Source of the DNA: Candidatus Saccharimonadota bacterium | GTDB lineage: Bacteria > Patescibacteriota > Patescibacteriia > 2-12-FULL-60-25 | Assembly: GCA_022843095.1 (NCBI GenBank) | Contig: JALHOH010000001.1 | Span: 240,001-272,000, forward strand | Reading direction: 5' to 3' | Length of the DNA: 32,000 bases | Made by a program: the position numbers and the translations under genes | Notes under the pieces: generated by a model | The model's input: only the letters and a program-made list of their open reading frames with translations | What the model was told of the DNA's origin: nothing | Databases searched by the model: none | In this document: one piece after another, positions 1,194 to 29,250 of the stretch | Layout of the letters: the number at the start of each line of letters is the position of its first letter | Numbering within the stretch: the stretch's first letter is position 1

Positions 1194-1217
1194 AGCGTTA
1201 GCAAATAGTGTGCTCCT

Positions 1218-1254: not shown

Positions 1255-1261
1255 ACGAGCA

Positions 1262-1291
1262 GAGGAAAACCATCGCCCAAACGGGCGATGG
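1262..1291 (-). terminator. intrinsic terminator after the NYN-domain gene
   Basis: Stem CCATCGCCC (1270-1278) pairs with GGGCGATGG (1283-1291) around an AAAC loop. A TTTTCC run follows on the minus strand. Confidence 0.6.
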
Positions 1292-1295
1292 TGTA

Positions 1296-1931: not shown

Positions 1932-2018
1932 ACAGGAAGGGCAAAGGATGCGCCCTCAAGAAAAGAATCAATGAACAATTCAAAGAATAGCAGGTTTTAT
2001 GCGAAAAATCAAGCGAAA

Positions 2019-3200: not shown

Positions 3201-3235
3201 AAAGAATACGGTCAGAATACCAGAAAATCCGTCGC

Positions 3236-3264
3236 TTGACCGCTGGAGGGGTGACACGTACAAC
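3236..3264 (+). promoter_or_regulatory. candidate sigma70-type promoter for the HD-domain gene
   Basis: TTGACC (3236-3241), a 17-nt spacer, then TACAAC (3259-3264). GGAGGTG lies 5 nt upstream of the ATG at 3294. Confidence 0.3.
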
Positions 3265-3293
3265 GTGGGCGGCTCACTTCTTGGAGGTGGTGC

Positions 3294-15434: not shown

Positions 15435-15845
15435 ATGACAGCTCGTATGAAGCAGTTGGTCGGATTTGCCGCCTCCTTGGGGTTATCCCTTTCGATGGCG
15501 ATGCCGGCCATCACGCACGCAGCACTTTCGCAATCCGAAGCCGATAAGGTGTTCGGTATTAGCGCGGTACAAGACAGCGGTTTGAAGCTCGGAGCTGGTG
15601 ACGTTCGCGCAACCGCGGGACGCATCATCAACGTCGCGCTCGGATTCCTCGGAATCATCGCCGTCGTTATCGTTCTTGTTGGTGGGTTCAAGTACATGGT
15701 GTCCGGTGGCAGTGAAGAAAAGACGCAAGAAGCGCGCAACTTGATTTTCGCTGGGGTCATTGGTCTCGCGATCATCTTGTCCGCCTGGGCAATCACGCAG
15801 TTTGTGATCCGCCAATTGATCGACGCCACGCAGAACGCCAGTTAA
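15435..15845 (+). CDS. small VirB2/TrbC-like (T4SS pilin-like) protein, 136 aa (array member D)
   Basis: Signal peptide ..SLSMAMPAITHA, a short mature N-terminus, then IINVALGFLGIIAVVIVLVGGFKYMVSGGSEEKTQEARNLIFAGVIGLAIILSAWAITQFV. It has the best Shine-Dalgarno sequence in the window. Confidence 0.8.
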   Translation: MTARMKQLVGFAASLGLSLSMAMPAITHAALSQSEADKVFGISAVQDSGLKLGAGDVRATAGRIINVALGFLGIIAVVIVLVGGFKYMVSGGSEEKTQEARNLIFAGVIGLAIILSAWAITQFVIRQLIDATQNAS

Positions 15846-15856
15846 TTCTCCATCCC

Positions 15857-16339
15857 ATGAGATTTCGCTTCCGCCAGTTTTTGGCACTCTCCGTTGTCGC
15901 GGCCCTTTGGGTGCCGCAGCTTGCGTTTGCACAGGCGACAGGTGGTACGGCGCCGGCACCGGCGCGGGCGTCAATTACGACCGCGAACACGGGGCTTGAT
16001 GCCGCCGCCGCGAACACGGGTCTTTCCAATGCGTGCCAAGGTGCGCAGGGGTCAGCCTGTGTCGCGCGGATCATGGGCGGCCTCATCAACATTGTGTTGA
16101 GCTTGGTCGGCTTTCTGCTCCTCTTTTATCTGTTGTACGGTGGCATCCTTTGGATGACTTCCGGCGGCGATACGGAGGGGGTGCAAAAGGCAAAAACCAT
16201 GATTCAGAACGCCGTCGTCGGAATGATTATTCTGGGCGCGTCGTTTGCCATCTCCAGTTTCGTGCTGTCGCAACTCGCGACGGCGTTTGGAGAGCCCGCT
16301 GCTTCGGCACCCGAGGCACCGGCCTCTCCGGGACCGTAA
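15857..16339 (+). CDS. small VirB2/TrbC-like (T4SS pilin-like) protein, 160 aa (array member E)
   Basis: Signal MRFRFRQFLALSVVAALWVPQLAFA. Hairpin: LINIVLSLVGFLLLFYLLYGGILWMTSGGDTEGVQKAKTMIQNAVVGMIILGASFAISSFV. The tail is Ala/Pro-rich. Confidence 0.8.
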   Translation: MRFRFRQFLALSVVAALWVPQLAFAQATGGTAPAPARASITTANTGLDAAAANTGLSNACQGAQGSACVARIMGGLINIVLSLVGFLLLFYLLYGGILWMTSGGDTEGVQKAKTMIQNAVVGMIILGASFAISSFVLSQLATAFGEPAASAPEAPASPGP

Positions 16340-16361
16340 TTCTTAAGGGATTATTTCGTGT

Positions 16362-16754
16362 ATGAAGCATCTGAAGACGTCGCTCGCATCCGCCTCGGCA
16401 TTCGTGCTCGGCGTTGCGGCACCGGCGGTTACATTGGCGGCGGGCAATCCGTTCACCAAGGCCGGCCAGTATTCGTCCGACATCAAGACGGCGTCTGGCG
16501 TGCAGGGCTCGGATAACTTGACCCAGATCATCGGCAACATCATCAACGTGTTGCTTGGGTTCTTGGGGATCTTGCTCTTGGCCTACATGTTGTACGCCGG
16601 TTTCCTCTGGATGACGGCCATGGGCGATTCCGACAAAGTGGATGAAGCCAAGACGATCATCAAGAACGCGGTCGTCGGTCTCATCATCATCGCCGCGGCC
16701 TTCGCCATCAGCAACTTCGTGTTGCAGCAATTGGTGACGGTCACGGGTGCGTAA
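16362..16754 (+). CDS. small VirB2/TrbC-like (T4SS pilin-like) protein, 130 aa (array member F)
   Basis: Signal MKHLKTSLASASAFVLGVAAPAVTLA. Hairpin: IINVLLGFLGILLLAYMLYAGFLWMTAMGDSDKVDEAKTIIKNAVVGLIIIAAAFAISNFV. Confidence 0.8.
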   Translation: MKHLKTSLASASAFVLGVAAPAVTLAAGNPFTKAGQYSSDIKTASGVQGSDNLTQIIGNIINVLLGFLGILLLAYMLYAGFLWMTAMGDSDKVDEAKTIIKNAVVGLIIIAAAFAISNFVLQQLVTVTGA

Positions 16755-16779
16755 CCCGTTCGCTGCGCAGCGAAGCATA

Positions 16780-16811
16780 CGATCCTCGGCAACGGGGATC
16801 GTTTGTTTTTT
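16780..16811 (+). terminator. intrinsic terminator ending the pilin-like array
   Basis: Stem CGATCCTC pairs with GGGGATCG (8 bp, one G-U pair), loop GGCAAC, then TTTGTTTTTT. Confidence 0.7.
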
Positions 16812-16816
16812 GTATT

Positions 16817-16846
16817 TGAAAACCCCCTCTGTCGTACCAGAGGGGG
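16817..16846 (-). terminator. intrinsic terminator for the convergent lipoprotein gene
   Basis: Stem CCCCCTCTG (16823-16831) pairs with CAGAGGGGG (16838-16846). On the minus strand TTTTC follows. Confidence 0.6.
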
Positions 16847-16879
16847 TGTTCGCGTCTCTCGGTGTGAGAGACGCAGAGT

Positions 16880-17752
16880 TCAGTACCCGCAGACGTGTGT
16901 CACACCTGCGGGGGTGGTGCTTCCTTGCGCTTCGGTCGTATACGATCCCATCGGGACGTACTGACCGACCGCGTTCCGGAGGAAGCACTGGAACGTGAGG
17001 CTGACACGTCGGCCGGTCATGTTCTCGACCCAGCCGTCGTATCCGAAGGTGTTTGCGGGGTTGCCCGGAGGGGCGCCCCACATCACGTTCCCGAATGCGT
17101 CGGTGATGCCGAGCGGGATACCGCCCTGCATCGGGATCGCGCGTCCGTTCGTGAGCACCGCGACCACGTACTGTGGTCCGATGCGCAAGCGGAGCGGGAT
17201 TTGCGTCACCTGCGTCGGGTCCGGGGGACCCAGCTGGATCTGTCCGACCGGCGCGAGCCCCATCGGGTTCACGCGGCCGAGAAATACCTGCTGCTGCGGG
17301 GGCATTTGGTTGCCCATCGGCATCATGCCGCTGGTCCACGCCTGCGACCCAGGCGGCACGTGTGCCGCCTGCTGCGCCGTGGGCTGCGCATCCTGCGCTG
17401 CCGTGCGCGTCTCTCGACGCGGGAGACGCGGGGCGCTCTCGCCGAGCGATCCGCACCCCTCTGCCGGAATGAGCGCGCGAAGCTCTTCGCATCGCGCGCC
17501 CTGGCACTGGCGCCCCGCCCGCTCGTCGAACCCCGCTTGCGCGAGGTAGCAGGCGCGGACGAGGTTGCTTTGCAGCAACTGCTCGTTCGTCCGCGCCTCC
17601 TCGTCGGCGCGACGAGTCGCCTCGACCAAGCGATCCGGGGAGATGGACTCCCTGGACTCCGTGGTCGGCAGCGTCGCGTTGCCGTTACTGCCCGCACCCG
17701 TCGTGGCGCAGGCGGTGAAGAACAAGAATGCGAGAACCAGGATCGTCTTCAT
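16880..17752 (-). CDS. hypothetical lipoprotein (290 aa) with a Gln/Pro/Met-rich central segment
   Basis: MKTILVLAFLFFTAC is a lipoprotein-type signal (Cys15). The central segment reads SGMMPMGNQMPPQQQVFLGRVNPMG. I recognise no family. The opposite-strand ORF of similar length is Arg-rich nonsense. Confidence 0.6.
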   Translation of the reverse strand: MKTILVLAFLFFTACATTGAGSNGNATLPTTESRESISPDRLVEATRRADEEARTNEQLLQSNLVRACYLAQAGFDERAGRQCQGARCEELRALIPAEGCGSLGESAPRLPRRETRTAAQDAQPTAQQAAHVPPGSQAWTSGMMPMGNQMPPQQQVFLGRVNPMGLAPVGQIQLGPPDPTQVTQIPLRLRIGPQYVVAVLTNGRAIPMQGGIPLGITDAFGNVMWGAPPGNPANTFGYDGWVENMTGRRVSLTFQCFLRNAVGQYVPMGSYTTEAQGSTTPAGVTHVCGY

Positions 17753-17823
17753 TGAACAAAACTTTCTGGGAGCATTGAGGCAGCTCCCTCGCCATATTTT
17801 TGGTTTTGGAAGCTGTGTTACGG

Positions 17824-18621
17824 CTAACGTCGCGGGCGGCGTGAGTGGCGCATCAGGGTGGTGATGTCGCCACGGAGGCGTTGGACTTCTTGCTCCAACG
17901 CGCTGCCACCGGACGAACCCGGCACGTACGCGCCGCCCGTTCCGGACGACACGTTACCGACCACGAACGTGGTCCGGTACCCCATGACGGGTTGCGGCAA
18001 AAGCCCGCAGGTTCCGTCGAGGGAGGGGAGCGGCGATCCTGGGCATCCGCCCATGCCACCGAATCCGCCGTTCACGGCACCTGGCCAGCCGAAGCCGCCA
18101 GTGACCATGCCCGGCATCATGCCCATCCCGCCGAATCCGCCGAGCATCCCCATGCCCGCCCCGTTCCAGAGGAGTTGATTCCCCTGGACGGCGAACTCGC
18201 GTCCGAACTGGCTCATGAGCCAGGCGACGCAGAGCTGCTGAAGCGGCGATGCCCACGGCGCGGTCATGGTGACCGTGTCCGCGCGGGTCTGAATCCCGGA
18301 GCGGATCTGCATCCAGCTTCCGTCGTCCACGTCCAGGCACCGCTGTGCCATGGACGACCCGGTGGTATCCACGTGGGTCACGCCCCCCAGGATCCCGGAG
18401 ACCGAGGTCCCGGATCCGGACGTCGTCCGCACCGTGTTCACGTAACAGCTGCTCACGCTAAGCGCGAGCAGCGCCGTCACCACCACGAACGCGATGCGTC
18501 GCGGCAAGAGTCGCGCGCGCGGCATGCGCTGATTCAGGTGCCACCAGAGAAGAACGGCACACATGCCGTTCAGAATTGCCGCCAGGACAAACAGTCCCGC
18601 GGCGAGATGAGCACTGTTCAT
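17824..18621 (-). CDS. hypothetical membrane protein or lipoprotein (265 aa) with a Gly/Met-rich tract
   Basis: Start chosen at MNSAHLAAGLFVLAAILNG.. (a hydrophobic helix). An alternative start at the complement of 18523-18525 gives MPRARLLPRRIAFVVVTALLALSVSSC, a textbook lipoprotein signal with a VSSC lipobox. The low-complexity tract is GAGMGMLGGFGGMGMMPGMVTGGFGWPGAVNGGFGGMGGCPG. The C-terminus is basic. Confidence 0.55.
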   Translation of the reverse strand: MNSAHLAAGLFVLAAILNGMCAVLLWWHLNQRMPRARLLPRRIAFVVVTALLALSVSSCYVNTVRTTSGSGTSVSGILGGVTHVDTTGSSMAQRCLDVDDGSWMQIRSGIQTRADTVTMTAPWASPLQQLCVAWLMSQFGREFAVQGNQLLWNGAGMGMLGGFGGMGMMPGMVTGGFGWPGAVNGGFGGMGGCPGSPLPSLDGTCGLLPQPVMGYRTTFVVGNVSSGTGGAYVPGSSGGSALEQEVQRLRGDITTLMRHSRRPRR

Positions 18622-18821
18622 GACGTCTCGCTTTCCGGGGCGTTTGCCCCAGGGTTGTTGATTGTCGAAGACCGGAATCCATCTGAGAAACACTCCCAGT
18701 AGGAACGTCGTAGCATACCCGAAAACGGGGATTTTGTCAAGCGTCTCACCACGCCTGTTTTGCCTAAAACTAGAAGAACTTTGTCCTTTTTTGGTTGTTT
18801 TACAGAAAATGTTCAGCACGA

Positions 18822-18850
18822 TTGACAAAATTGCTGTTTTTTGCTATGTT
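18822..18850 (+). promoter_or_regulatory. sigma70-type promoter for the 18944/19946 gene pair
   Basis: TTGACA (18822-18827), a 17-nt spacer, then TATGTT (18845-18850). This is the closest match to the -35/-10 consensus in the window. Confidence 0.55.
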
Positions 18851-18912
18851 CAAACGTCTTCTGGCGACCAGGTGTTGCCAGAAGGCCCAACGTATTTTCA
18901 CAACACACACGT

Positions 18913-18933
18913 TGGCGCCATCGCATGGCGCCA
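18913..18933 (+). promoter_or_regulatory. twin palindromic octamers TGGCGCCA-tcgca-TGGCGCCA (operator-like site or 5'-UTR hairpin)
   Basis: Two exact copies of a self-complementary 8-mer, 13 bp centre to centre. The second copy ends where the Shine-Dalgarno AGGAG (18933-18937) of the ATG at 18944 begins, sharing one A. Confidence 0.4.
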
Positions 18934-18943
18934 GGAGAAAAAG

Positions 18944-19930
18944 ATGGCCAAAAAAAATGGTGATGGGGGTGAGGGAAGCGATTCCCTCTCCGGCGATGTC
19001 GGCCGGGTCGTGATGCGTGTGCTGATGAAACAGCTCGTGTCGCGTCTTTCCGGCGGGTGGACCAAGGATGGATCGATCGTGAAGGATGTATTCACGGCGG
19101 GCATCCCGGAGCTCATCGGCTGGAGTGATAGCTCCGAAGGGGCGCTGCAGGGGGCGGTCGAAGCCTCCTACGAACCCATTCGAGCAAAGCTTTTCAACCG
19201 ATGGGCGCAGGTCGCCAAGACCCGTGGCATTTCACCAGACGAGCCGCTCAAGATCACGGACATCGACCTCCTCGCAGGGGACGATGCGTTGATCAAGAGC
19301 ATCACCGGAGTCATCCGCGACAAGTACGCGGAACTTCGGAAGGAGCAGCTGTCGAATCCTACGCTGGCCCGGCTGGAGAAACTGCTTGGATCGCGTCTAA
19401 AGGTCGTTTGGCGCGCCTACAAGACCTACCTGAAGGATCCGTCCGATGCGGACGTGGATCCGAAGGGCGAGAAGACGCCCGACGAACGCGCGGAGGCCAA
19501 GAAGGAGCTGAAAAGCCGATATGACGAGATCGTCAAAGGCGAGCAGAAGGTTTCCTTCGGTCAGGTGGAGGCGTTTCTCGATCGGTTCCTCGATGACGGT
19601 GACGTAGCCGCGCTGCGAAAGGCGCTGAACAACGTCATCAAGTTCAAAGAAGAACCGAAAGGTAAAGCTGCCTTCGAATCCTTGACCGGGATCAAGGTGA
19701 AGGATCTCCAGAGCGACCCGGGGAAGGTGCTGAAGAATGTGTTCGGTGGCGGCAAAGCCGCAGCCGCGACACGTGAGCTCAAGCACGCGGCCCAGCGTTC
19801 TGACGAGTATTCTCGTCGGTACGCGATCGAGAAAAGCGCGGGGCCGATGGCGCCGGCGCACGAAGAAGATGATCTTCGTGCGCGGTTCTGGCTCGTGCGT
19901 CTCTGGCGCTGGTTGAAAAACCTTTTTTAG
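18944..19930 (+). CDS. hypothetical Lys/Glu-rich helical protein (328 aa) with a C-terminal amphipathic Trp/Arg/Leu helix
   Basis: Start chosen at MAKKNGDGGEG, with AGGAG 6 nt upstream. The track ORF's upstream 94 aa span the promoter. The C-terminus is RARFWLVRLWRWLKNLF. I recognise no family. Confidence 0.6.
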   Translation: MAKKNGDGGEGSDSLSGDVGRVVMRVLMKQLVSRLSGGWTKDGSIVKDVFTAGIPELIGWSDSSEGALQGAVEASYEPIRAKLFNRWAQVAKTRGISPDEPLKITDIDLLAGDDALIKSITGVIRDKYAELRKEQLSNPTLARLEKLLGSRLKVVWRAYKTYLKDPSDADVDPKGEKTPDERAEAKKELKSRYDEIVKGEQKVSFGQVEAFLDRFLDDGDVAALRKALNNVIKFKEEPKGKAAFESLTGIKVKDLQSDPGKVLKNVFGGGKAAAATRELKHAAQRSDEYSRRYAIEKSAGPMAPAHEEDDLRARFWLVRLWRWLKNLF

Positions 19931-19945
19931 GTCAAGGAGAAGAAG

Positions 19946-22030
19946 ATGGCAGACGATAAAAAGCAGAATGCGGCGGACGCCCTCATGGATTGGGTGCCGC
20001 CGATCGCGGGTGCAGCAGCACTCGCGACGAATGCGGAGCTTCGGAACGGCATCGCGCTGTTCCGCAACGCGGGGGTTGGCGCCCTCGTCGAGTTCAAGGG
20101 CAAATGCGAGCGCTGGGTGTGGTGGAACGCCACGGCCCTTGCGCGCGCCTTCGCGAACGCTACGCACATCGCGGCGTGGGTGCTGATTCTGGCAGACGTG
20201 TTCGGCCAATACGCAGCGCTCATGGGGACGCATGGCGTCCGCATGCCGGGGGTGTTGTGGGGGGTGCCGCTCGCGGCGCTCCTCCTCAACATCTTCTGCG
20301 TAATCCTTCCCATCTGGTGGGTGATCCACCGGACCATGGGCACGGAAGCCATTCCGTGGTCGTGGGAGCTCACGGCTGATCTCGCCTTCCCGGCGCGAGA
20401 AGACGCAGAGACTGATGTGGTCTTTGCGCAGCGTCTGCGTGCGCAAGTGCAAGCCTTGCGTGGGCGGATCTGCACGCTCGCACTCGATCTCGCGATCGAC
20501 CCTCGGCGGCGCGTGTGGCGACAGAATGTCGTCACGTGGCTCCAGGGGGAGATCATGCGTCTCGATCCGGCTCTGGCTCCGCCCTTGCCGGTGAATGCGC
20601 CGACGGTCGAAGACGTCGAGCGGTTCACTACGGCGGCGCAGCGTGCGTGGGCGCTACACACGACGACTGCGAGCGATCAGCAGGCACTCGACCTCCTGGA
20701 GGTCGAGCGGGTTGCGCTTGGGCGTCGGCTTCGGCTGATGCACGATGACGCGACGCGTCGCCAGTTTGGCGAACGGGGAAACCCGCTTCTCGCCATGGCG
20801 GTGCTGATCTGCGCCGTCACGGCAAAGGGGGTGCTCGCCATGGAGTGGCGTTCACTCGTCCTGAACTACGTCTGCGATGTGCAGGCGTTGACCTCAGTGA
20901 TCCCGTGGCTCGTGGGGATGGGGGCGCTCGTCCTCTTCTTCATCCTCGGAAAAACGACGGTGGTCGCGATTCATCTGCTGGCATCTGCCGCGGATGCGAT
21001 CGGGATGACTGCGACCGAGTTCTTCCGGGGCCTCGCGGTGGCAGCACCTGGGATCACCTCGGAGAACGTCGACAGCAAGCTTCCGAAGGTCGATTGGAAG
21101 ATCAATCTCATCACCTTCAAATGGGAGTTGATCTTCGACGAGATCTGGTACGCTGGAATCGGCGCAGGGATGATCGTGCTGCATGCGGTGTCGCCGCTTT
21201 GGAGCACGGGAATCTTCGTCCTCGGGATCGGCTCGTCGCTCGGTGTCTATCTGCTGAAGAAGCGAGGCATCGATGTTCTGGGCAAGGAGCAGAATCGAGC
21301 ACATGCGCTGTATTGGATCTTCGGGATCCTGGCAGGCGCGCTCGTATTCTTCTCCCTGCTGAACATGACCTTCGGCTGGTGGACGCGTCCGACGTTTACC
21401 GGTGCGATGGTGGCACTCCAGGGCGGGGAACTGCTCTGGGTCGCGGGAAGCGACATCCTCAAGCTCCTCGCGTTTCCGTTCGTCGGGATCGCGATCGTGC
21501 TTGCGACCCTCGGGATGTGGTTCTTCACGCTCGGGTGGCTCGGTTTCTTTCTCGTGGGCTTTGTCCTCGCGGTTCTTCTCTTCCAACTGGGGCATTGGAG
21601 CCCGGAAGGGAACGCGCGGTGGCTGAAGTACGCGGGGATGACGCTCGCCGGTCTCGCGATGCTCGTCTTGATCGGCGGGCGTGCGCAGCAGATCGACGGA
21701 CGTTCGCTCACGGAGCGCAGTCGGATGGTGGGGGTTGCGTCGGGAGCGATTCCCGCGCCGCCTCCGCCGTCGACCCCTCCGGATGATCAGCGCGGACCGA
21801 TTCGTCACGCGTGGGATCGCATGATGGGAACGGCGCCCTGGATCAACTGGGGATCGTCGTCTTCCGGAAGCGATACCCGTGCGGTGTCGTCTGCGCCGGC
21901 GGCGACCCTGTCGTCGTCACGGCATTCGCAGGAGCGCTACTATCGCCCGGACGAGAATCCTCCCTGCGAGGACCTCGACGGTGACGAAGAGTATCGCGCC
22001 ATGATTCGGCGCAACGGGATGTGTCACTAA
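19946..22030 (+). CDS. hypothetical polytopic membrane protein (694 aa, ~10 predicted TM helices, ~150-aa soluble Arg/Leu-rich insert, Pro/Ser-rich tail)
   Basis: AAGGAG lies 7 nt upstream of the ATG, and the start is 15 nt after the previous stop. There are many long hydrophobic runs (e.g. VLWGVPLAALLLNIFCVILPIWWVI, LLAFPFVGIAIVLATLGMWFFTLGWLGFFLVGFVLAVLLF). The tail contains APPPPSTPP. I recognise no family. Confidence 0.7.
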   Translation: MADDKKQNAADALMDWVPPIAGAAALATNAELRNGIALFRNAGVGALVEFKGKCERWVWWNATALARAFANATHIAAWVLILADVFGQYAALMGTHGVRMPGVLWGVPLAALLLNIFCVILPIWWVIHRTMGTEAIPWSWELTADLAFPAREDAETDVVFAQRLRAQVQALRGRICTLALDLAIDPRRRVWRQNVVTWLQGEIMRLDPALAPPLPVNAPTVEDVERFTTAAQRAWALHTTTASDQQALDLLEVERVALGRRLRLMHDDATRRQFGERGNPLLAMAVLICAVTAKGVLAMEWRSLVLNYVCDVQALTSVIPWLVGMGALVLFFILGKTTVVAIHLLASAADAIGMTATEFFRGLAVAAPGITSENVDSKLPKVDWKINLITFKWELIFDEIWYAGIGAGMIVLHAVSPLWSTGIFVLGIGSSLGVYLLKKRGIDVLGKEQNRAHALYWIFGILAGALVFFSLLNMTFGWWTRPTFTGAMVALQGGELLWVAGSDILKLLAFPFVGIAIVLATLGMWFFTLGWLGFFLVGFVLAVLLFQLGHWSPEGNARWLKYAGMTLAGLAMLVLIGGRAQQIDGRSLTERSRMVGVASGAIPAPPPPSTPPDDQRGPIRHAWDRMMGTAPWINWGSSSSGSDTRAVSSAPAATLSSSRHSQERYYRPDENPPCEDLDGDEEYRAMIRRNGMCH

Positions 22031-22045
22031 TCACGTTCGTTGCGC

Positions 22046-22079
22046 AAAATCCCTTCACACACGGTGGAGGGATTTTTTT
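22046..22079 (+). terminator. intrinsic terminator after the 694-aa gene
   Basis: Stem AAATCCCT pairs with AGGGATTT around a 13-nt loop. The stem runs into a 7-T tract (ATTTTTTTG). Confidence 0.7.
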
Positions 22080-22156
22080 GTGGAAAAAAGTTATCCACGG
22101 TTTTCTGTTGACGCGGTTCTCGCGTGTGCTAACAATGAGGCATGGCACAGCCAAAT

Positions 22157-22220
22157 CGCGACGCGCTCACGTCGTCCGCCCTCCGGGTGGTGTGAGTCGC
22201 GCTCGCGCATTTTTGTTTTT
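22157..22220 (+). terminator. long imperfect hairpin plus T-tracts (second terminator, or the 3' end of a short RNA)
   Basis: CGCGACGCGCTCAC pairs with GTGAGTCGCGCTCGCG (two bulges) around an inner CGCCC/GGGTG stem, followed by CATTTTTGTTTTT. A possible promoter lies upstream: TTGACG at 22108-22113, a 16-17-nt spacer, then TAACAAT at 22130-22136. Confidence 0.4.
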
Positions 22221-22262
22221 CCATTCCCCCCTTCCCGCACCCATGCTTGGCGAGAAGGGGAG

Positions 22263-22300
22263 AACAACAGAGGACCGGCGATAGGCCGGTCCTCTGTTGT
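22263..22300. terminator. perfect 17-bp hairpin downstream of the 64-aa minus-strand ORF
   Basis: AACAACAGAGGACCGGC, loop GATA, GCCGGTCCTCTGTTGTT. The flanking T-tracts are weak on both strands. Confidence 0.5.
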
Positions 22301-22312
22301 TTGAACGCGTGG

Positions 22313-22507
22313 TTACACGTTCGTCGCTTCTTCCCAGAGCGCCAGTTCGCGCATCGCGGCATCCACCTGCGTTTCGACCCCATCCACGTCTAAATCATCC
22401 GATGCCAGAATAAAATGGTTGATGAGTGTCGCGCGGCATTCGGCGCGAGGCCGTACCGAACCGTCTTCGTTTAGACAGAGGGCGCGTAACGAGGCGAGAT
22501 CCTGCAT
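22313..22507 (-). CDS. small acidic hypothetical protein (64 aa)
   Basis: MQDLASLRALCLNEDGSVRPRAECRATLINHFILASDDLDVDGVETQVDAAMRELALWEEATNV. A hairpin lies downstream. There is no clear Shine-Dalgarno sequence and I recognise no family. Confidence 0.35.
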   Translation of the reverse strand: MQDLASLRALCLNEDGSVRPRAECRATLINHFILASDDLDVDGVETQVDAAMRELALWEEATNV

Positions 22508-22554
22508 ATGAAAAAAGCATAGCAAAAAAGCGAGAATATGCGTACCATGCCGAC

Positions 22555-23727
22555 ATGTCTCACACGCGCTGGATCCGCTTCTTGCTGACGCTCCTCCCGG
22601 CGGCCTTGCCGTTGTATGTGGTGCGTTTTTCGGTGGGACCGCTTCCCACGACGGCAGTAGAGGCGTATGTCGTGGTGATCGCTCTCGTCTTCATCGGGAC
22701 GTATCAACGAGCTGCATGGAAACACTTGTGGAATGCGCTGGGTCCCTGGCGTGCGCCGCTTGTTGCGTGGACCGTGGTGACCGGAGTTGCTGCGCTGTAC
22801 GCACCGGATCTATGGAAAGGGATCGGTCTGTGGCGGGCGTTTGTGTTGGAGCCCCTTTTGGTCTTTGGCATGATGCGTGCCGCGCTTGAGGAGCGGGATC
22901 GATCGCATCTCGAGGATGTCGCATGTGCTACGGCGGTTGGAGTCGCGACCTGGGGGGTGATCCAATACCTCACCGGCTGGGGGATTCCGGCGCCATGGAA
23001 TGTGTCGATGGAGGCAGGTCGTCGTGCCACGGGTCCGTTTCCGTATCCAAATGCGCTTGCGTTGTTTGTGGTTCCAATCGCCGCGTATGCCTGGCAACGG
23101 TTGTGGCATGCCGCGTGGATGGATGGTGGGATGAAGCGTTTGGTTCTGATCGTGACGTGGATCATGGGGTGGGTGGCGTGTTTGGTTGCTCAAAGTGATG
23201 GTGGGTTCGTCGCACTCGGAGCCGCTACGGTGTTTGTGATGTTGTGGTATCCGATGGGCCGACGCCTGGTCGTGGTTGGAGGGGTGATCGGATCGCTTGT
23301 CCTAGCGATTGCGCCACCCCTGCGTGAAAAGGTATGGCGTGAGGTCACGTTGCAGGGGTGGTCAGGGACGGTGCGTCGGTATCAATGGCGTGAAACCACG
23401 GACATGCTGCGTGACCATTGGGCGCTTGGCGCGGGGATGGGGGGCTATCCCACGGTGTTTGCGCCGTACCACAAGGCAACGGCGATCGAGATTTTTCAAT
23501 ACCCGCACAACATCTTGCTGAACGTGTGGGTGGAGGCGGGGATTGCCGGGGTGCTTGTGATGACGTGGCTTTTAGGGAAATGGGGACGTGATGCGGGATG
23601 GCGAGGAATGGCGCCGCTCGTGGCTCTGTTGGTGCACGGGTTGGTCGATGTGCCGTTTTTCAAGAATGACCTTGCGATGGCCTGGATGATCCTCCTCCTG
23701 TTGACCACCCGCCCAACCCCACGTTAG
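22555..23727 (+). CDS. O-antigen ligase/polymerase family (Wzy_C-type) integral membrane protein
   Basis: Start chosen at MSHTRWIRFLLTLLPAALPLYVV. About 10 TM helices. An extracytoplasmic loop carries RRATGPFPYPNALA, and the later motif YPHNILLNVWVEAGIAGVLV is typical of the O-antigen ligase family. Confidence 0.7.
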   Translation: MSHTRWIRFLLTLLPAALPLYVVRFSVGPLPTTAVEAYVVVIALVFIGTYQRAAWKHLWNALGPWRAPLVAWTVVTGVAALYAPDLWKGIGLWRAFVLEPLLVFGMMRAALEERDRSHLEDVACATAVGVATWGVIQYLTGWGIPAPWNVSMEAGRRATGPFPYPNALALFVVPIAAYAWQRLWHAAWMDGGMKRLVLIVTWIMGWVACLVAQSDGGFVALGAATVFVMLWYPMGRRLVVVGGVIGSLVLAIAPPLREKVWREVTLQGWSGTVRRYQWRETTDMLRDHWALGAGMGGYPTVFAPYHKATAIEIFQYPHNILLNVWVEAGIAGVLVMTWLLGKWGRDAGWRGMAPLVALLVHGLVDVPFFKNDLAMAWMILLLLTTRPTPR

Positions 23728-23977
23728 CATGCGCAAGCTCGCCTGTTTTTCTTTGAGAAACAGCGACCCTAGAAGTGACGTTCCCCCGGGGGGCCCCGTT
23801 GCTGAGGTCCGCCGATGCAATGGGGTACGCGAGGCTCTTGTCTGGAAGGGGTTAGCGAACGGAGTGAGCGCGAAGGGGAAACCTGGATACAGGTTGCCCC
23901 TCGAAGCGTAGCGGTTGCGCAGACCCAAGTGAGCATCAGATGATGTGAACGAGTGGTCGGCGCAACAACGCGAGCAT

Positions 23978-24068
23978 GGAAAGGTGGCAGAGTGGTCGAA
24001 TGCGCCGGACTCGAAATCCGGTATACCCCAAAAGGGTATCGAGGGTTCAAATCCCTCCCTTTCCGCCA
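23978..24068 (+). tRNA. tRNA-Ser (anticodon CGA), class II with a long variable arm and encoded CCA
   Basis: Acceptor stem GGAAAGG/CCTTTCC. Anticodon stem CCGGA/TCCGG with loop CTCGAAA. Variable arm TATACCC-CAAAA-GGGTATC. T arm GAGGG-TTCAAAT-CCCTC. Discriminator G, then CCA. Confidence 0.9.
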
Positions 24069-24156
24069 AAAACATCCCGCATGTCGCGGGGTGTTTTTGT
24101 AATCCAGCGTTATTCCCAAAATAGGAACAGGTGCGTTATACTTGTTTCAACTCTGT

Positions 24157-24552
24157 ATGCCAAAATCCTCGAAACCGCTCATCCTTGTCGTGGAAGACGA
24201 TCGCTTTTTGATCAAAGCCTTTCAGGCAAAGCTCGCAACAACGTCCTACGAAACTGCAACGGCAAACGATGGTGAAGAAGCGATCGCGTTCTTGAAGCAT
24301 CGCAAACCGGACCTCATGTTGCTTGATATCGTCATGCCAAAAAAGGACGGGTTTGCGGTGTTGGAAGAGATGCAAAAGAATCCGGCTTGGAAAAAAATTC
24401 CCGTCATTATTCTTTCGAACCTCGGACAAGAGTCTGACCGGGAAAAGGGGAAAGCGCTTGGAGCCGTCGATTTTTTGGTGAAAACCGATTTTTCTCTCCA
24501 GCAGATCTTAACGGTTTTGGACAAATACGTTTCTAAAAAGAAGACCGCATGA
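24157..24552 (+). CDS. stand-alone response-regulator receiver domain (CheY-like)
   Basis: ILVVEDD, phospho-acceptor context DLMLLDIVMP, ILSNLG, and DFLVK (conserved Lys). 131 aa with no output domain. Its stop overlaps the pilB ATG (ATGA). Confidence 0.85.
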   Translation: MPKSSKPLILVVEDDRFLIKAFQAKLATTSYETATANDGEEAIAFLKHRKPDLMLLDIVMPKKDGFAVLEEMQKNPAWKKIPVIILSNLGQESDREKGKALGAVDFLVKTDFSLQQILTVLDKYVSKKKTA

Positions 24553-26231
24553 AGGCACTTTCCATTGAACAGCTGGAAAAGCTGTTTGTGGGCGGCGATT
24601 TTTTGAAGCCGACGGAATTTGCGTTGGTGAAAGAGAAGGCGGGCGGAACGGGGATGTCCATCCCGGATGCCGTGGTGGATTTGGGATATCTTTCCGATGC
24701 TCAGGTCGGGCGATTAATCGCGGAAGAGCTCGGGTATCGATTTGTGGATTTATTGAAAACGAAAATCGATCATCCAACGCTGCATTTGTTGCCAGAGGCG
24801 GCCGCCATTTCGCAAAAGACCGTGATTTGGAAGCGGAATGCCGAAGGGGTGTTTGTGGCGACCACGGATCCAGATAATTTGGAGTTTCTGCGGTTGCTTA
24901 AAAAACGCTTTCGAGAACCGGTAATGGTTGCGTTCGCGACGAAGTACGGGATCACGGAAGCGCTCCGGGGGTATCAAAAAGACTGGATTGACCAAATCGT
25001 GGCGCGCTTGGAAAAAATGAAGGTGAATCCGCAGGATGAAGACGTGGTTTCGCTGGTGCAGCTCGTTCTTTCCGCTGCATATGAACAGCGCGCGTCTGAT
25101 ATCCACATCGAGCCGGAGCGGGAAGAGGCGGTGGTGCGATTTCGTATCGACGGTGTCATGCAGGAACGCGTCCGGTATCCCATCGCGTTTCATGAGAAAG
25201 TCGTCTTTCGTATCAAGATTTTGGCGCGATTGCGTACCGACGAACATGCTTCAGCGCAGGACGGTCGGTTTGAGCTGCGTGTGGGGCCAAACCTCCTGAA
25301 CGTCCGTGTCTCTATTTTGCCTATTACACATGGCGAAAACGTCGTGATGCGTTTGTTGTCCGAGCAATTTCAGCGATTGCGCTTGGAAGATTTGGGGATG
25401 CAGGAGGATGATCTAGAGCGGATTAAGCGCGCTGCAGAACTTCCGCATGGAATGATCTTGGCAACTGGTCCGACGGGTTCTGGGAAAACCACAACGCTGT
25501 ATGCCGTCATTCACATTTTGAATCAGCCCGATGTAAACGTGATGACCATTGAGGATCCGGTCGAATACGATATTTCCGGCGTGCGTCAGATTCAGGTGAA
25601 CCCGCGTACAAACCTGACCTATGACGCGGGGCTTAAATCCATCGTGCGCCAAGACCCGGATGTCATCATGGTTGGAGAAATTCGTGATGCCGAAACCGCC
25701 GGGATCGCCGTGAACGCCGCATTGACGGGGCACCTCATGCTCTCGACGCTGCACTCGAATGATGCGCCGACGGCGTTTCCACGTTTGGCGGAAATGGGAA
25801 TTGAGCCGTTTTTGGTCGCGTCTTCGGTGAACGTCATTGTTGGGCAACGTCTGGTGCGACGCATTTGTTCGGATTGCTTGGGGAGTTATCAGCTCTCGGA
25901 AGAAGAATATGAAGCAGTATCACAAGATTCGGCGCTTCTTGCTCTCATCCGTAAGATTGGCGGAAAAAAAGATCTTGCGCGAACGCAGTTTTATAAAGGA
26001 ATGGGATGCACCGCTTGCGGACATACGGGGTATCGCGGTCGAAGCGGGTTGTTTGAAGTGCTGCAGGTCTCTGAATCTTTGCGTCCGCTGATTGTGAATA
26101 AAGCGACGTCGTTGGATATTCGGTCATTGGCGATCAAAGAGGGGATGCGTACGATGGTCGAAGACGGAGTGGAGAAGGTGTTCAAAGGGGTGACTACCAT
26201 CATGGAGGTGTTGCGTGCGACAAAAGCATAA
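24549..26231 (+). CDS. pilB: type IV pilus assembly ATPase (GspE/PilB family)
   Basis: N-terminal T2SSE_N-like domain. Walker A GPTGSGKTTTLYA. Asp/His boxes (IMVGEIRD, LTGHLMLSTLHSND). Tetracysteine motif CSDC..CTAC. Confidence 0.9.
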   Translation: MKALSIEQLEKLFVGGDFLKPTEFALVKEKAGGTGMSIPDAVVDLGYLSDAQVGRLIAEELGYRFVDLLKTKIDHPTLHLLPEAAAISQKTVIWKRNAEGVFVATTDPDNLEFLRLLKKRFREPVMVAFATKYGITEALRGYQKDWIDQIVARLEKMKVNPQDEDVVSLVQLVLSAAYEQRASDIHIEPEREEAVVRFRIDGVMQERVRYPIAFHEKVVFRIKILARLRTDEHASAQDGRFELRVGPNLLNVRVSILPITHGENVVMRLLSEQFQRLRLEDLGMQEDDLERIKRAAELPHGMILATGPTGSGKTTTLYAVIHILNQPDVNVMTIEDPVEYDISGVRQIQVNPRTNLTYDAGLKSIVRQDPDVIMVGEIRDAETAGIAVNAALTGHLMLSTLHSNDAPTAFPRLAEMGIEPFLVASSVNVIVGQRLVRRICSDCLGSYQLSEEEYEAVSQDSALLALIRKIGGKKDLARTQFYKGMGCTACGHTGYRGRSGLFEVLQVSESLRPLIVNKATSLDIRSLAIKEGMRTMVEDGVEKVFKGVTTIMEVLRATKA

Positions 26232-26252
26232 GGGCGAGCCACCTGTTCGGTG

Positions 26253-26261
26253 TGCTATACT
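26253..26261 (+). promoter_or_regulatory. extended -10 promoter TGcTATACT 6 nt upstream of the pilC ATG
   Basis: TATACT at 26256-26261 and ATG at 26268, with no Shine-Dalgarno sequence. This implies a leaderless start. Confidence 0.5.
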
Positions 26262-26267
26262 GACCGC

Positions 26268-27341
26268 ATGCGCTTTACGCGGTTGTTCTTGCAACGCTTT
26301 TTTCATCGCGAGTTGGTGGAATTTTTTAAGAACCTCGCACTCATGGCGGAATCGGGCATTCCGTTGAATGAATCGCTCCATGTCCTCGAAGAACAGGCGC
26401 GTTCCTCTGTATTTCGGAATTTTTTACACGATGTCCGTCGGCAGGTCGAAGAAGGAAGTCCGCTTTCGAAGGCGATGTTGCTGTATCGCGAAGACATCGG
26501 CGACTTGGCGCTCAATGTTATTCGTGCGGGTGAGGTGAACGGGACGCTGGAGCAAAACTTTCGGTATCTCGCCGATATTTTGCAGCGACGTCGTGAGCTC
26601 AAGGAAAAAATTAATGGAGCGTTGCTGTATCCCGAAATCGTTCTTGGACTCGTGTTTTTGCTAGGAGGTGCCATCTCCATCTTCATTCTTCCAAAACTCA
26701 TCCCCTTGTTTCAGTCGTTGAACGTCGCATTGCCACTTTCGACGCGCATGTTGCTTGGGATTTCTGTGTTTCTCCAAGAAAATGCCGCCTTGGTGTTTGT
26801 GGGGATGATCTCGGTGATCGTGTTGCTGATCGGGTTAGCGCGGTTTCATCCGGTCCGGTATGCCCTTCATACCGTCCAACTTCATCTTCCGTACTTTGGA
26901 CGCTTATCGCAGAACTATCAGCTTGCGTTGTTTGCACAAATCTTTGGAACGTTGTTTCGAAGCGGGTTAACCATTCGTGAAACGCTTACGGTGACAACGG
27001 ATGCGCTCACCAATTTTCGCTATCGCGCCGTGTTGCGGCAGGCGGCAAAGCGATTGGTTGCAGGTATTCCATTGGGCGCAATTTTAAGTAAATTCCCGAA
27101 CTTTTTTCCGCAAAACTTGATCGCGCTCATTTCGGTCGGTGAACAATCCGGGAAACTGGATGAATCGTTCAAGTATTTGGCGACCTATTACGATCACGAA
27201 GTGGATGTCCAAACCAAGCGGTTGCCAACCATGCTCGAACCGATCCTGCTTGTGATCATTGGTGTCGTTGTGTTGTTCGTGTCGTTGGCCATTCTTACCC
27301 CGATTTATGAAATTACGAGCGGGATCAATGCCGGGCGATAA
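26268..27341 (+). CDS. pilC: type IV pilus platform protein (GspF/PilC family)
   Basis: Two GspF-type repeats (..AESGIPLNESLHVLEE.. and ..RSGLTIRETLTVTTDA..) and three TM segments. I preferred ATG 26268 over the track's GTG at 26250 because of the promoter position. Confidence 0.85.
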   Translation: MRFTRLFLQRFFHRELVEFFKNLALMAESGIPLNESLHVLEEQARSSVFRNFLHDVRRQVEEGSPLSKAMLLYREDIGDLALNVIRAGEVNGTLEQNFRYLADILQRRRELKEKINGALLYPEIVLGLVFLLGGAISIFILPKLIPLFQSLNVALPLSTRMLLGISVFLQENAALVFVGMISVIVLLIGLARFHPVRYALHTVQLHLPYFGRLSQNYQLALFAQIFGTLFRSGLTIRETLTVTTDALTNFRYRAVLRQAAKRLVAGIPLGAILSKFPNFFPQNLIALISVGEQSGKLDESFKYLATYYDHEVDVQTKRLPTMLEPILLVIIGVVVLFVSLAILTPIYEITSGINAGR

Positions 27342-27780
27342 GCGCGGGGGGTATACGTTGGTCGAGATGGTAATCGTGATCGTCTTGCTTCTTGCGATCG
27401 GCGCCGTGTCGATTGGGGCATTTGTGCAGTTCTATCAAACGTCGCTTGTGGATGATACAAGCCGAACGCTAAAGGATATGTTGCGTCGCGCACGTGCACA
27501 GGCGATGGCGCAGCGGAATAATGCGGCGTGGGGCGTGCGTGTGGTGACCACGACAGACATGGTTGTGTTGTTTGAGGGGAATTCCTATGCGACGCGCGAT
27601 GTTCCGGAAGATGAGTCGTTTGAACTTCCAGGTGACGTCATAGTATCCAGTACCGTGTACGAAGTGGTGTTTTCGCGGCTGTACGGTACCTCAACGGCGA
27701 GCACGACTTGGCAGATTACAAATGGGGGTGTTTCTGATGCTATTCTCATTAATTCCGCTGGGTTGATTCAGTTGCAATAA
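27328..27780 (+). CDS. minor (pseudo)pilin, GspH/FimT-like
   Basis: Start chosen at MPGDKRGG|YTLVEMVIVIVLLLAIGAV, a class III signal with Glu at +5. It overlaps the pilC end by 14 nt. Confidence 0.8.
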   Translation: MPGDKRGGYTLVEMVIVIVLLLAIGAVSIGAFVQFYQTSLVDDTSRTLKDMLRRARAQAMAQRNNAAWGVRVVTTTDMVVLFEGNSYATRDVPEDESFELPGDVIVSSTVYEVVFSRLYGTSTASTTWQITNGGVSDAILINSAGLIQLQ

Positions 27781-27798
27781 GCGTCGTCATCAAAGATT

Positions 27799-27807
27799 TG
27801 GTATACT
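27799..27807 (+). promoter_or_regulatory. extended -10 promoter TGgTATACT 6 nt upstream of the ATG at 27814
   Basis: TATACT at 27802-27807, with no Shine-Dalgarno sequence. Confidence 0.5.
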
Positions 27808-27813
27808 GACCCT

Positions 27814-29250
27814 ATGACCCTGCGTCGGGGTTCTGGATTGGTTGAAGCCGTGATCGCGATCGCGATTTTTGTGGCATCCATTGGGACGATTGCAGCACTC
27901 GTGATCGGGGCGGGGACCGTTCAACGCCGCGGGGTAGAACGTGAAAAAGCGTTGCTTTTGGCAGAAGAGGGGATCGAGGCCGTGCGCTCGATTCGTGATC
28001 GCAGCTGGGCATCGATGGTGACAGGGACGCGCGGGGTTGTGGTGTCGTCCACGAATATGTGGGAGTTTTTTGGATCAAGCGATGTGACGGATGGATACAC
28101 GCGCACGGTTCAGATCGCTGCGTCGGGGACCACGGCCTATCGTGTGACCTCGACCGTTTCATGGGCATTTTCTGGGGCGGTGAGTGGAACGGTATCGCTT
28201 GCAACCGTCCTTTCTGATTGGCAAACCTCCTATGATCCCGGTGGTGGGGATACAGGATGTAGTCCCGCGAATTGGGCGACCAGTCTTCTTCGTGCGACCG
28301 TGAACCTGTCCGGGACGGATGATGCGCTTTCCGTTGCAGCAACGGGATCGCTAGTGTTTGTTGGGCGCTCCATCGGAACACAGGAACTGACGATTGTTGA
28401 TGTCTCAAGTTCCACGGCGCCGGTCGTGTTGTCGACGCTGGACTTGGCGTCCGATAACGCGAATGCGCTCGCACTTTCGACGACAGGGACTTATCTGTAT
28501 GTAGGGGGTGCTGGGACGGAGGTCGTGGTCGTAAACTATGCGAGCACGACGGCTCCTACTGTCGCTGGGTCGTTGAATCTTTCGGGTACAAACGATGTCC
28601 GTGGTTTGGCGGTGAGTGGGACGCATTTGTATGTCACGCGTGATTTTGTCGCTGCAGATCCGGAATTTGTTGTGGTGAACGTCATAAACCCGAATGCACC
28701 TACCTTGCTTGGAAGCGCTCAAGGAAGCGGTGGATTTTGGGGGGTCGCCGCATCCGACATCCCTTCTCAAGGATATGCGTACACGGGTTCCAGTGAAAAT
28801 GGCGCAGAATTTCGGGTTGCAAACGTGATCAACCCCGCCGCGCCCACGATTGCAGCGTCGTTGAACTTTGGGGGGAACGAAAATATGCGTGATGTGGTGA
28901 CTTCTGGAACGATCGCCTTCGCGTCCTCGTTAAGTCGGTTGACGGCTGGTCAGGGTGAAGTTCAGGTGGTGAATGTAAATATTCCTACAACGCCGGTGAG
29001 TTTGGCGCAGATCGAATACGGGGCAAACGTTAACGCCCTTCATCGCGGAGATGGGGTGATCTTTGCTGCGAGCGCGTCCTCTACCCGTGAGTTTTCAGTG
29101 ATTGACGCTACGAATCCGGCGCTTCCTTCGATTATTTCGGGATTAAATTTGACGACTACAGGAAACAATGTGAAGGGGGTGAATTGTCGCGCCTATGTGG
29201 TAACAAGTGGTAACAGCGATGAACTGTATGTTATTGAACCGGGATCATAA
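27814..29250 (+). CDS. minor pilin fused to a seven-repeat LVIVD-type beta-propeller (478 aa), a candidate pilus-tip adhesin
   Basis: N-terminus MTLRRG|SGLVEAVIAIAIFV is pilin-like, with Glu at +5. From about aa 150 there are seven repeats of the form E(L/V/F)xV(V/I)(D/N)(V/A)xNPxxPxxxxSL: ELTIVDVSSSTAPV, EVVVVNYASTTAPT, EFVVVNVINPNAPT, EFRVANVINPAAPT, EVQVVNVNIPTTPV, EFSVIDATNPALPS, ELYVIEPG. Confidence 0.75.
   Translation: MTLRRGSGLVEAVIAIAIFVASIGTIAALVIGAGTVQRRGVEREKALLLAEEGIEAVRSIRDRSWASMVTGTRGVVVSSTNMWEFFGSSDVTDGYTRTVQIAASGTTAYRVTSTVSWAFSGAVSGTVSLATVLSDWQTSYDPGGGDTGCSPANWATSLLRATVNLSGTDDALSVAATGSLVFVGRSIGTQELTIVDVSSSTAPVVLSTLDLASDNANALALSTTGTYLYVGGAGTEVVVVNYASTTAPTVAGSLNLSGTNDVRGLAVSGTHLYVTRDFVAADPEFVVVNVINPNAPTLLGSAQGSGGFWGVAASDIPSQGYAYTGSSENGAEFRVANVINPAAPTIAASLNFGGNENMRDVVTSGTIAFASSLSRLTAGQGEVQVVNVNIPTTPVSLAQIEYGANVNALHRGDGVIFAASASSTREFSVIDATNPALPSIISGLNLTTTGNNVKGVNCRAYVVTSGNSDELYVIEPGS

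Follow-up and report, generated by a model that had tools for sequence, protein, structure and literature searches.

A GC-rich block of four orphan, putative envelope genes in two divergent operons beside a VirB2-like pilin array of a patescibacterial chromosome

Patescibacteria, or the Candidate Phyla Radiation (CPR), carry arrays of two to eleven VirB2-like genes in 383 assemblies, often near virB4 (PMC12102498). In some patescibacterial classes, few or no homologues of VirB6 have been reported, and the authors of the same study see extreme divergence as the cause (PMC12102498). Most of the CPR-enriched families of unknown function are membrane or extracellular proteins with links to cell-cell interaction, the genomes are enriched in MdbA-like oxidoreductases, and the cells are thought to have no outer membrane (PMC6744442). 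Here, we describe a GC-rich block of four genes (open reading frames ORF1 to ORF4; positions 16817–22079) located directly beside six genes of a VirB2-like pilin array in a 32,000-nucleotide stretch of a Candidatus Saccharimonadota bacterium chromosome (contig JALHOH010000001.1). The whole stretch is called the window below, and the positions are those of the window.

We read the block, with a probability of about 45%, as a self-contained module of four envelope genes that are co-regulated, restricted to their lineage, and possibly imported, the lineage being a poorly sampled one within Patescibacteria. The operon on the minus strand would export ORF1 and ORF2 as lipid-anchored, disulfide-bonded surface proteins on the outer face of the membrane. 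The operon on the plus strand would make a membrane complex, in which the polytopic ORF4 serves as a platform or conduit, and the charged, helical ORF3 would dock beside it from the cytoplasm via the amphipathic helix at its C-terminus. The shared promoter architecture would make all four proteins appear together, which would suit a single surface or host-interface structure better than four unrelated genes.

Architecture, products and homology searches

The four genes are organized into two divergent two-gene operons that are bounded by terminators and equipped with twin promoters of the sigma-70 type, as predicted from the sequence (Table 1). The spacer between the operons has a length of 322 nucleotides (18622–18943), close to the shared control region of about 320 nucleotides proposed in a first-pass annotation of this DNA. 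It contains two inverted-repeat arms, each 40 nucleotides long and 73% complementary to one another, and both promoters have a perfect −35 box and a score of 10 out of 12. The 29-nucleotide pattern TTGACAAAATN4GTTTTN4TATGNT is found in the window only at these two promoters, with 0 occurrences expected by chance. The mirrored, near-identical promoters indicate co-regulation of the two operons and are the best evidence that the block is one unit. The likeness of the promoters reaches past the −35 and −10 boxes. This points to a site for a common regulator or to duplication of a promoter.

The 5′ leader of the ORF3–ORF4 operon folds with a minimum free energy of −39.7 kcal/mol (z = −4.3), and none of 200 shuffled sequences was as stable. 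The second of its two hairpins abuts the Shine-Dalgarno sequence AGGAG at positions 18933–18937. The leader matched no Rfam family, the tRNA being the sole find of the Rfam search, and it may act in the control of translation. Both ORF3 and ORF4 are preceded by strong Shine-Dalgarno sequences of the AGGAG type, and the gap between the two genes is 16 nucleotides. At the left boundary of the block, the hairpin at 16779–16802, together with a run of thymines, terminates the pilin gene pilinF, and the hairpins at 16818–16851 and 16853–16874 would serve the minus-strand operon. Two single-nucleotide polymorphisms (SNPs) between strains, at 16779 and 16795, lie in this hairpin cluster.

ORF1 begins with the signal MKTILVLAFLFFTA in front of the lipobox cysteine, Cys15 (lipobox LFFTA followed by C). 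The signal is followed by a charged helical segment, a linker rich in proline, glutamine, and methionine, and a C-terminal domain. The mature protein contains six cysteines beyond that of the lipobox. ORF2 has two possible start codons, and the one at 18525 gives a canonical lipoprotein signal, MPRARLLPRRIAFVVVTALLALSVSS followed by C. The lipobox of ORF2 (ALSVSS followed by C, at Cys59) is preceded by RARLLPRR and a hydrophobic core, and the protein includes a glycine- and methionine-rich low-complexity region and four cysteines after the lipobox. Both lipoboxes, read from the translations, fit the PROSITE PS51257-type pattern, and the two minus-strand genes thus have the lipoprotein or membrane signals that had been ascribed to them. 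The even numbers of cysteines fit extracytoplasmic, disulfide-bonded proteins. ORF1 and ORF2 show no paralogy to each other.

ORF3 has no signal peptide, no cysteine, and no P-loop. It is predicted to be all-helical, and 33% of its residues are charged (lysine 10.7%, glutamate 7.3%, aspartate 8.2%). The C-terminus of ORF3, LRARFWLVRLWRWLKNLF, has a hydrophobic moment of 0.50 and a mean hydrophobicity near zero. This cationic, tryptophan- and leucine-rich, amphipathic terminal helix of 18 residues may function as a membrane-docking element. ORF4 can be divided into two transmembrane segments (residues ~75–127), a charged helical insert of about 150 residues (128–280), about eight more transmembrane segments (281–578), and a proline- and serine-rich tail of 116 residues with a pair of cysteines at its end. 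The composition and moment of ORF3 and the approximately ten hydrophobic segments and tail of ORF4 agree with the first-pass annotation, which had described a Lys/Glu-rich helical protein with an amphipathic C-terminus and a 694-residue protein with about ten transmembrane segments and a Pro-rich tail.

The searches of billion-protein databases covered ORF1, ORF3, and ORF4, and no relatives of these proteins were detected by sequence. Among 5.8 billion proteins, ORF4 (in a word-index search) and ORF3 retrieved only themselves, and ORF1 retrieved nothing, itself included. An exhaustive phmmer search with ORF4 of 1.84 billion representative proteins likewise returned only the query. No block protein had a match above threshold in Pfam, NCBIfam, PHROGs, or PADLOC (ORF4 had none in Pfam even at E ≤ 10), and the matches to PDB sequences were at chance level. 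The tblastn searches of plasmids and of INPHARED phages gave no match (none for ORF4 among 72,556 plasmids at E ≤ 1), nor did scans of IMG/VR with all four proteins, tblastn searches of all retrieved loci, or comparison with the other proteins of the window, pilins included. For ORF2, the search comprised Pfam, NCBIfam, PHROGs, PADLOC, PDB, plasmids, and IMG/VR, and yielded no match. The N-terminus of ORF1 weakly resembles the Rz-like spanin family phrog_456 (E = 0.025) and the LysC family PF23793 (E = 0.068); the latter reaches 13.5 bits, with a family cut-off of 27, and both matches span the signal peptide and a biased charged segment. The single-sequence AlphaFold2 models of ORF4 and ORF3, for which there were no homologues to align, have predicted local distance difference test scores of 45 and 47, respectively, too poor for a comparison of folds. 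A Foldseek search of the PDB with the low-confidence ORF4 model gave a best E of 0.6 with a TM-score of 0.09, and all TM-scores were ≤0.10, which is meaningless as a match. The profile and sequence searches, the large collections among them covering ORF1, ORF3, and ORF4, bear out the initial impression that none of the four proteins resembles a known family.

Table 1. Positions of the genes, regulatory elements, and related features in the window. GC1/2/3, GC fraction at the first, second, and third codon positions; LLR, codon log-likelihood ratio.
Feature	Position	Strand	Description
ORF1	16880–17752	−	290 aa; predicted lipoprotein; GC1/2/3 0.66/0.54/0.84; LLR positive
ORF2	17824–18621	−	265 aa from ATG 18621, or 233 aa from ATG 18525; GC1/2/3 0.63/0.56/0.82
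ORF3	18944–19930	+	328 aa; strong Shine-Dalgarno sequence; GC3 0.72; LLR +0.30
ORF4	19946–22030	+	694 aa; polytopic, ~10 transmembrane segments; GC3 0.78
Left boundary, three-hairpin cluster	16779–16874		between pilinF (+) and the 3′ end of ORF1 (−)
Control region with mirrored twin promoters	18705–18857		inverted-repeat arms 18705–18744 and 18818–18857
Minus-strand promoter	TTGACA 18740–18735; TATGCT ending 18712	−	score 10/12, perfect −35
Plus-strand promoter	TTGACA 18822–18827; TATGTT ending 18850	+	score 10/12, perfect −35
Structured 5′ leader of ORF3–ORF4 operon	18856–18943	+	13-bp hairpin 18856–18886; hairpin 18912–18934
Right boundary, intrinsic terminator of ORF3–ORF4 operon	22046–22079	+	13-bp stem, then T7
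tRNA-Ser(cga)	23978–24068		1.9 kb from the block, host-like Wzy gene in between
Strain contig L070	15021–16810
Strain contig L071	16207–17201
Strain contig L072	~23905–29170

Base composition, codon usage and reading frames

The GC content of the block is 62.5%, compared with 55.7% for the remaining window, and is the maximum among all 5.26-kb windows of the stretch. The GC fraction at third codon positions (GC3) is 0.72–0.84 in the block genes and 0.55–0.69 in the Pfam-confirmed genes, with the exception of pilinF (0.84). In ORF1 and ORF2, GC1 and GC2 are raised as well. The dinucleotide delta* peaks over positions 17001–22000 (97, compared with 29–83 elsewhere in the window). Computed along the window, the GC, GC3, and codon profiles are thus not flat (P values of 1e-9 to 1e-18 for codon usage), which confirms the GC anomaly noted in the first-pass annotation and adds codon usage and dinucleotides to it; the tetranucleotide signature is host-like. 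The spot estimates of 67–77% GC for 60-nucleotide lines hold at 17.3 and 18.1 kb (measured 0.68–0.72) and were slightly too high at 21.4 kb (0.60–0.67), the block maximum being 0.77. The estimates of about 47–55% for leuS, the solute-binding protein gene, and pilB are matched by means of 0.52–0.54.

The codon usage of the block is shifted in all degenerate classes that we compared by Fisher tests. The TTR codons make up 16 of 167 leucine codons in the block (0.10; 0.07–0.18 across its genes), compared with 250 of 633 in the rest of the window (0.39; P = 4.5e-15), and the choice has moved to CTS. The share of C-ending codons among two-fold pyrimidine codons (NNC/NNY) is 0.73 in the block and 0.46 in the rest (P = 5.7e-18), and the share of G-ending codons among two-fold purine codons (NNG/NNR) is 0.73 and 0.49, respectively (P = 3.2e-9). 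The pilin genes pilinD and pilinF have similarly high NNC values (0.79–0.82), yet their leucine TTR fraction is host-like (0.50–0.56), and therefore the bias of the block differs in kind from theirs. The C-ending bias of these two short pilins is probably due to high expression, and may mark highly expressed subunits. The codon usage of the block is also unlike that of pilins A–E.

The coordinates proposed for the four genes in the first-pass annotation are correct, and all four reading frames are supported as real genes on the proposed strands. Throughout the block, the codon phase with the highest GC follows the third position of each proposed frame, and the position-specific base frequencies of ORF1 and ORF2 on the minus strand agree with those of pilinF, ORF3, and ORF4. 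The LLR is positive for all four genes and negative for every rival frame; for example, it is +0.115 for ORF2 and −0.343 for the antisense ORF at 17845–18702(+). The stop-free antisense ORFs of 285–426 residues that had been reported on both strands are present, as is expected from the high GC3. Their reverse-complement shadow pattern (A1 ~0.07–0.09), Arg/His-rich composition, and negative LLR led us to reject them as genes. A public protein collection (source NCBI) contains the 285-residue antisense ORF 17845–18702(+) in place of ORF2 and nothing in the frame of ORF1. This entry looks like a gene-calling error caused by the locally high GC3.

The same species is represented in two Logan assemblies, from SRA runs SRR31730576 and SRR30163052, at 99.2–99.5% identity. 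Contig L071 crosses the junction between pilinF and ORF1 at 99.2% identity, and its gene caller places ORF1 on the minus strand. An assembly chimera was rejected because this independent contig spans the left junction. The part of ORF1 covered by L071 contains six SNPs, five of them at third codon positions (four synonymous, one M>I), and the remaining one a conservative I>V change; the predominance of third positions supports the ORF1 frame. The SNP density in this part of ORF1 is about 4–6 times higher than in the adjacent pilin region (6/322 and 2/673, P = 0.016). In the pilin genes, SNPs between the strains are distributed as seven synonymous to one non-synonymous. The end of contig L070, at 16810, coincides exactly with the left border of the block. 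The pilB-variant contig L072 does not reach the block, and exact-protein look-ups with ORF4, ORF3, the product of a 64-codon ORF described below, and Wzy recovered no further strain contigs over it.

The possibility that the block is an artefact, either an assembly chimera or a set of partly spurious frames produced by the high GC, is barely credible and has already been largely refuted. It could draw on the public protein collection, with its antisense entry and its gap in the ORF1 frame, and on the score of only ~0 bits per codon for ORF1 and ORF2 under a host-gene codon model. The independent assembly of the other sequencing run covers the left junction, however, the third-position GC periodicity tracks the four proposed frames, and the rival frames all have negative LLR and shadow compositions rich in arginine and histidine. 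In addition, the strain SNPs are consistent with the ORF1 frame, and the signal peptides, promoters, Shine-Dalgarno sequences, and terminators are coherently placed.

Genomic setting and origin of the block

The window is a chromosome segment of the Patescibacteria (CPR) type, and its proteins come from a contig of 683,555 bp. Its left part contains genes with NYN and HD domains, leuS, a nucleotidyl transferase gene, and the gene of a solute-binding protein, which are followed by six T4SS_pilin genes on the plus strand (PF18895; 11600–16754; E from 1e-6 to 3e-10 in the Pfam scan) and by the block. To the right of the block are a Wzy_C/O-antigen-ligase-like gene, tRNA-Ser(cga), a response regulator gene, and a type IV pilus cluster with pilB, pilC, and pilM. 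The first three genes of the pilin array (620, 302, and 337 residues) have large cysteine-rich N-terminal extensions, and the last three are short (130–160 residues), with pilinE and pilinF being 56% identical. No virB4 was found near the array in Pfam scans of the ORFs of the 32-kb window. The spacer between ORF4 and the Wzy gene (22031–22554, 524 nucleotides) is highly structured (z = −8.7 over 22031–22320). It includes a promoter-like site at 22108–22136 followed by a long hairpin and a run of thymines near 22140–22220, a perfect 17-bp hairpin at 22263–22301, and a plausible ORF for an acidic protein of 64 residues at 22313–22507 on the minus strand, without a Pfam match or a record. The spacer may harbour an unannotated small RNA or small protein gene.

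Relatives of the locus were sought with pilB as an anchor in GTDB representatives and JGI metagenomes, neither of which includes the host genome itself. The nearest relative by pilB, 60% identical, is a groundwater metagenome-assembled genome of a "Patescibacteria group bacterium" (locus L001). It shares the pilus cluster with the window, but the region upstream is not syntenic and contains neither the pilin array nor the block. Instead, positions 4484–7892 of L001, upstream of its pilus cluster, carry a tRNA-Ala and, after it, defence genes for a GmrSD restriction enzyme and for an ATPase of the AAA_21/AbiEii type, which suggests that this neighbourhood may be a variable hotspot.

The shift of GC3 and codon usage in all four genes, on both strands and with sharp borders, would be best explained by acquisition. 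The block may have been acquired from, or exchanged with, an unsampled source of higher GC; candidates for the donor are other patescibacteria, mobile elements, and phages, and rapid divergence would have followed. The foreign island suggested in the first-pass annotation is thus plausible but unproven: the anomaly of composition and codon usage is real and bounded by terminators, but the block lacks an integrase, att repeats, and an adjoining tRNA. The tRNA-Ser 1.9 kb beyond the block and the lack of an integrase had both been pointed out, and they are confirmed by the tRNA position in Table 1 and the Pfam scans, respectively. Of the usual features of islands, the block exhibits atypical composition and codon usage, and lacks an integrase and an insertion at the 3′ end of a tRNA gene with repeats.

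Several observations weigh against an imported module. No gene scanned has an integrase or recombinase Pfam domain, a search for att sites and direct repeats over 15800–24600 gave only short repeats at chance level, and no tRNA directly adjoins the block, tRNA-Ser being located beyond the host-like Wzy gene. A recent import predicts homologues in the donor, yet none was found in ~15 billion proteins. The correlation of tetranucleotide z-scores between the block and the rest is not depressed (r ~0.6, like any other segment). The genes at 315–4823 are also low in leucine TTR codons, so that the compositional heterogeneity of the genome extends beyond the block; in these four left-end genes (hyp297, NYN, hyp454, and HD), the TTR fraction is 0.08–0.24 and the GC content is 56–59%. 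Few genomes of the host lineage have been sampled, as the 60% identity of the nearest pilB shows, and the orphan status could therefore reflect sampling together with fast evolution. Finally, the gene arrangement is the only ground for supposing that the four proteins associate physically.

Some of the same observations would be explained if the four were native, vertically inherited, fast-evolving, and highly expressed envelope genes, a reading that we consider less likely. The GC3 excess would then result from translational codon selection or local GC-biased conversion, and the lack of homologues from sparse sampling, for which the distance to the nearest pilB speaks. The host-like tetranucleotide signature, the perfect −35 boxes and strong Shine-Dalgarno sequences, the lack of mobility genes, and the mostly synonymous SNPs in ORF1, indicative of purifying selection, are all compatible with native genes. 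Moreover, pilinF and pilinD, which are native judging from Pfam and paralogy, share the high NNC values, and pilinF the high GC3. Selection linked to expression is, however, difficult to reconcile with the altered first-position choice for leucine in the block (TTR 0.10 versus 0.39), which is unaltered in pilinD and pilinF and looks like a compositional background. The elevated GC1 and GC2 of ORF1 and ORF2, the sharp coincidence of the compositional borders with the terminators, and the higher SNP density in the ORF1 part than in the adjacent pilin region also speak against a native origin. It is very improbable that the block is what remains of a prophage or another mobile element, such as a lysis or spanin-like cassette that lost its integrase. 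The two weak spanin matches of ORF1, the atypical composition, and the hotspot-like region of L001, with its tRNA, GmrSD, and AAA_21 genes, would fit such a remnant, but both matches are under the curated cut-offs and lie over the signal peptide and the biased segment. No relatives of the block proteins occur in IMG/VR, INPHARED phages, or PHROGs, PADLOC results were empty, and spanins work on an outer membrane, whereas CPR cells are believed to have none (PMC6744442).

The position of the block beside the six PF18895 genes raises the question of its relationship to type IV secretion systems (T4SS), and the first-pass annotation had tentatively proposed ORF4 as a VirB6/TrbL-like partner of the pilin array. 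We found no support for this: ORF4 has no match to TrbL/VirB6 (PF04610) or PrgH-type families in Pfam at E ≤ 10 or in NCBIfam, none of the four proteins matches T4SS_pilin, and Pfam scans of 30 window ORFs revealed no VirB4, TrsD, or type IV coupling protein (T4CP) domain. The block is therefore not a recognisable set of T4SS components. It could nevertheless be extremely divergent membrane machinery for the adjacent array, with ORF4 as an analogue of VirB6, TrbL, or PrgH, ORF1 and ORF2 as VirB7-like lipoproteins, and ORF3 as a cytoplasmic scaffold, which we judge improbable. The adjacency to the array is the only favourable argument, besides the general resemblance of a large polytopic protein accompanied by two lipoproteins and the reported scarcity or absence of VirB6 in some patescibacterial classes (PMC12102498). 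The absence of any T4SS profile match at E ≤ 10, of a VirB4 or T4CP ATPase in the window, and of a P-loop in ORF3 speaks against it. The minus-strand operon is transcribed towards the array, with three hairpins in between, the codon usage differs from that of pilins A–E, and VirB7 proteins are small, with about 50 residues, compared with 230–290 for ORF1 and ORF2. The anticipated co-occurrence with T4SS_pilin arrays was not observed either; such arrays occur in 383 assemblies, and neither beside the hundreds of other arrays nor in any other genome did the searches reveal a homologue of ORF1, ORF3, or ORF4. The more specific proposal, that the four genes encode an assembly platform for the VirB2-like array that is unrecognisable by sequence, is a distinctly long shot. 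Such a platform would belong to a lineage of Patescibacteria whose canonical T4SS membrane parts escape detection. In it, ORF4 would serve as the analogue of VirB6, ORF3 would act as a cytoplasmic scaffold docked to the membrane, the two surface lipoproteins would be ORF1 and ORF2, and the twin promoters would co-regulate an organelle of host contact.

Significance and relation to known systems

Patescibacteria depend on contact with their hosts, and surface and membrane orphans are the likeliest seat of lineage-specific functions in host interaction. A co-regulated envelope module of four genes for which no relatives were found in ~15 billion proteins is a concrete and small target for structure prediction and proteomics. 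The locus also holds a lesson for annotation: in GC3-rich stretches of CPR genomes with moderate GC content, gene callers can choose an antisense shadow frame, as at 17845–18702. The block at present answers no open question on T4SS or pilus assembly, and is of modest interest unless structure prediction ties ORF4 to the assembly of pilins.

Compared with VirB6, TrbL, or PrgH and VirB7, the block offers a polytopic protein with a proline-rich tail and lipoproteins encoded beside PF18895 genes. It differs from these systems in the lack of profile similarity and, according to the scans of the window, of linked VirB4, VirB3, VirB8, and T4CP genes. ORF4 has about ten transmembrane segments in 694 residues and a charged insert of 150 residues, and ORF1 and ORF2 are five to six times the size of VirB7. 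The transcription and codon usage of the block are separate from those of the pilin array. The similarity to the Rz/Rz1 (LysC) spanins is limited to the lipoprotein signal of ORF1, the charged helical segment that follows it, and the weak profile matches, which are below threshold. In contrast to the spanins, ORF1 has a length of 290 residues and an additional C-terminal domain, and there is no holin or endolysin context nearby.

FtsA and MinD are peripheral proteins with membrane-targeting C-terminal amphipathic helices. ORF3 resembles them in having a soluble, cysteine-free body followed by an amphipathic helix of 18 residues. The resemblance is functional only, since ORF3 is unrelated to FtsA and MinD in sequence and domains and lacks a nucleotide-binding motif.

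The closest counterparts of the block are atypical islets of orphan genes. Unlike many such islets, it has no integrase, transposase, or flanking direct repeats, its tRNA is not adjoining, and its tetranucleotides are host-like. It has in common with them the sharp break in GC, GC3, and codon usage, the lack of homologues, the envelope or surface products, and a tRNA nearby, and the region upstream of the type IV pilus cluster is variable in the nearest relative. The block is thus a further example of a familiar kind, the atypical orphan-gene islet.

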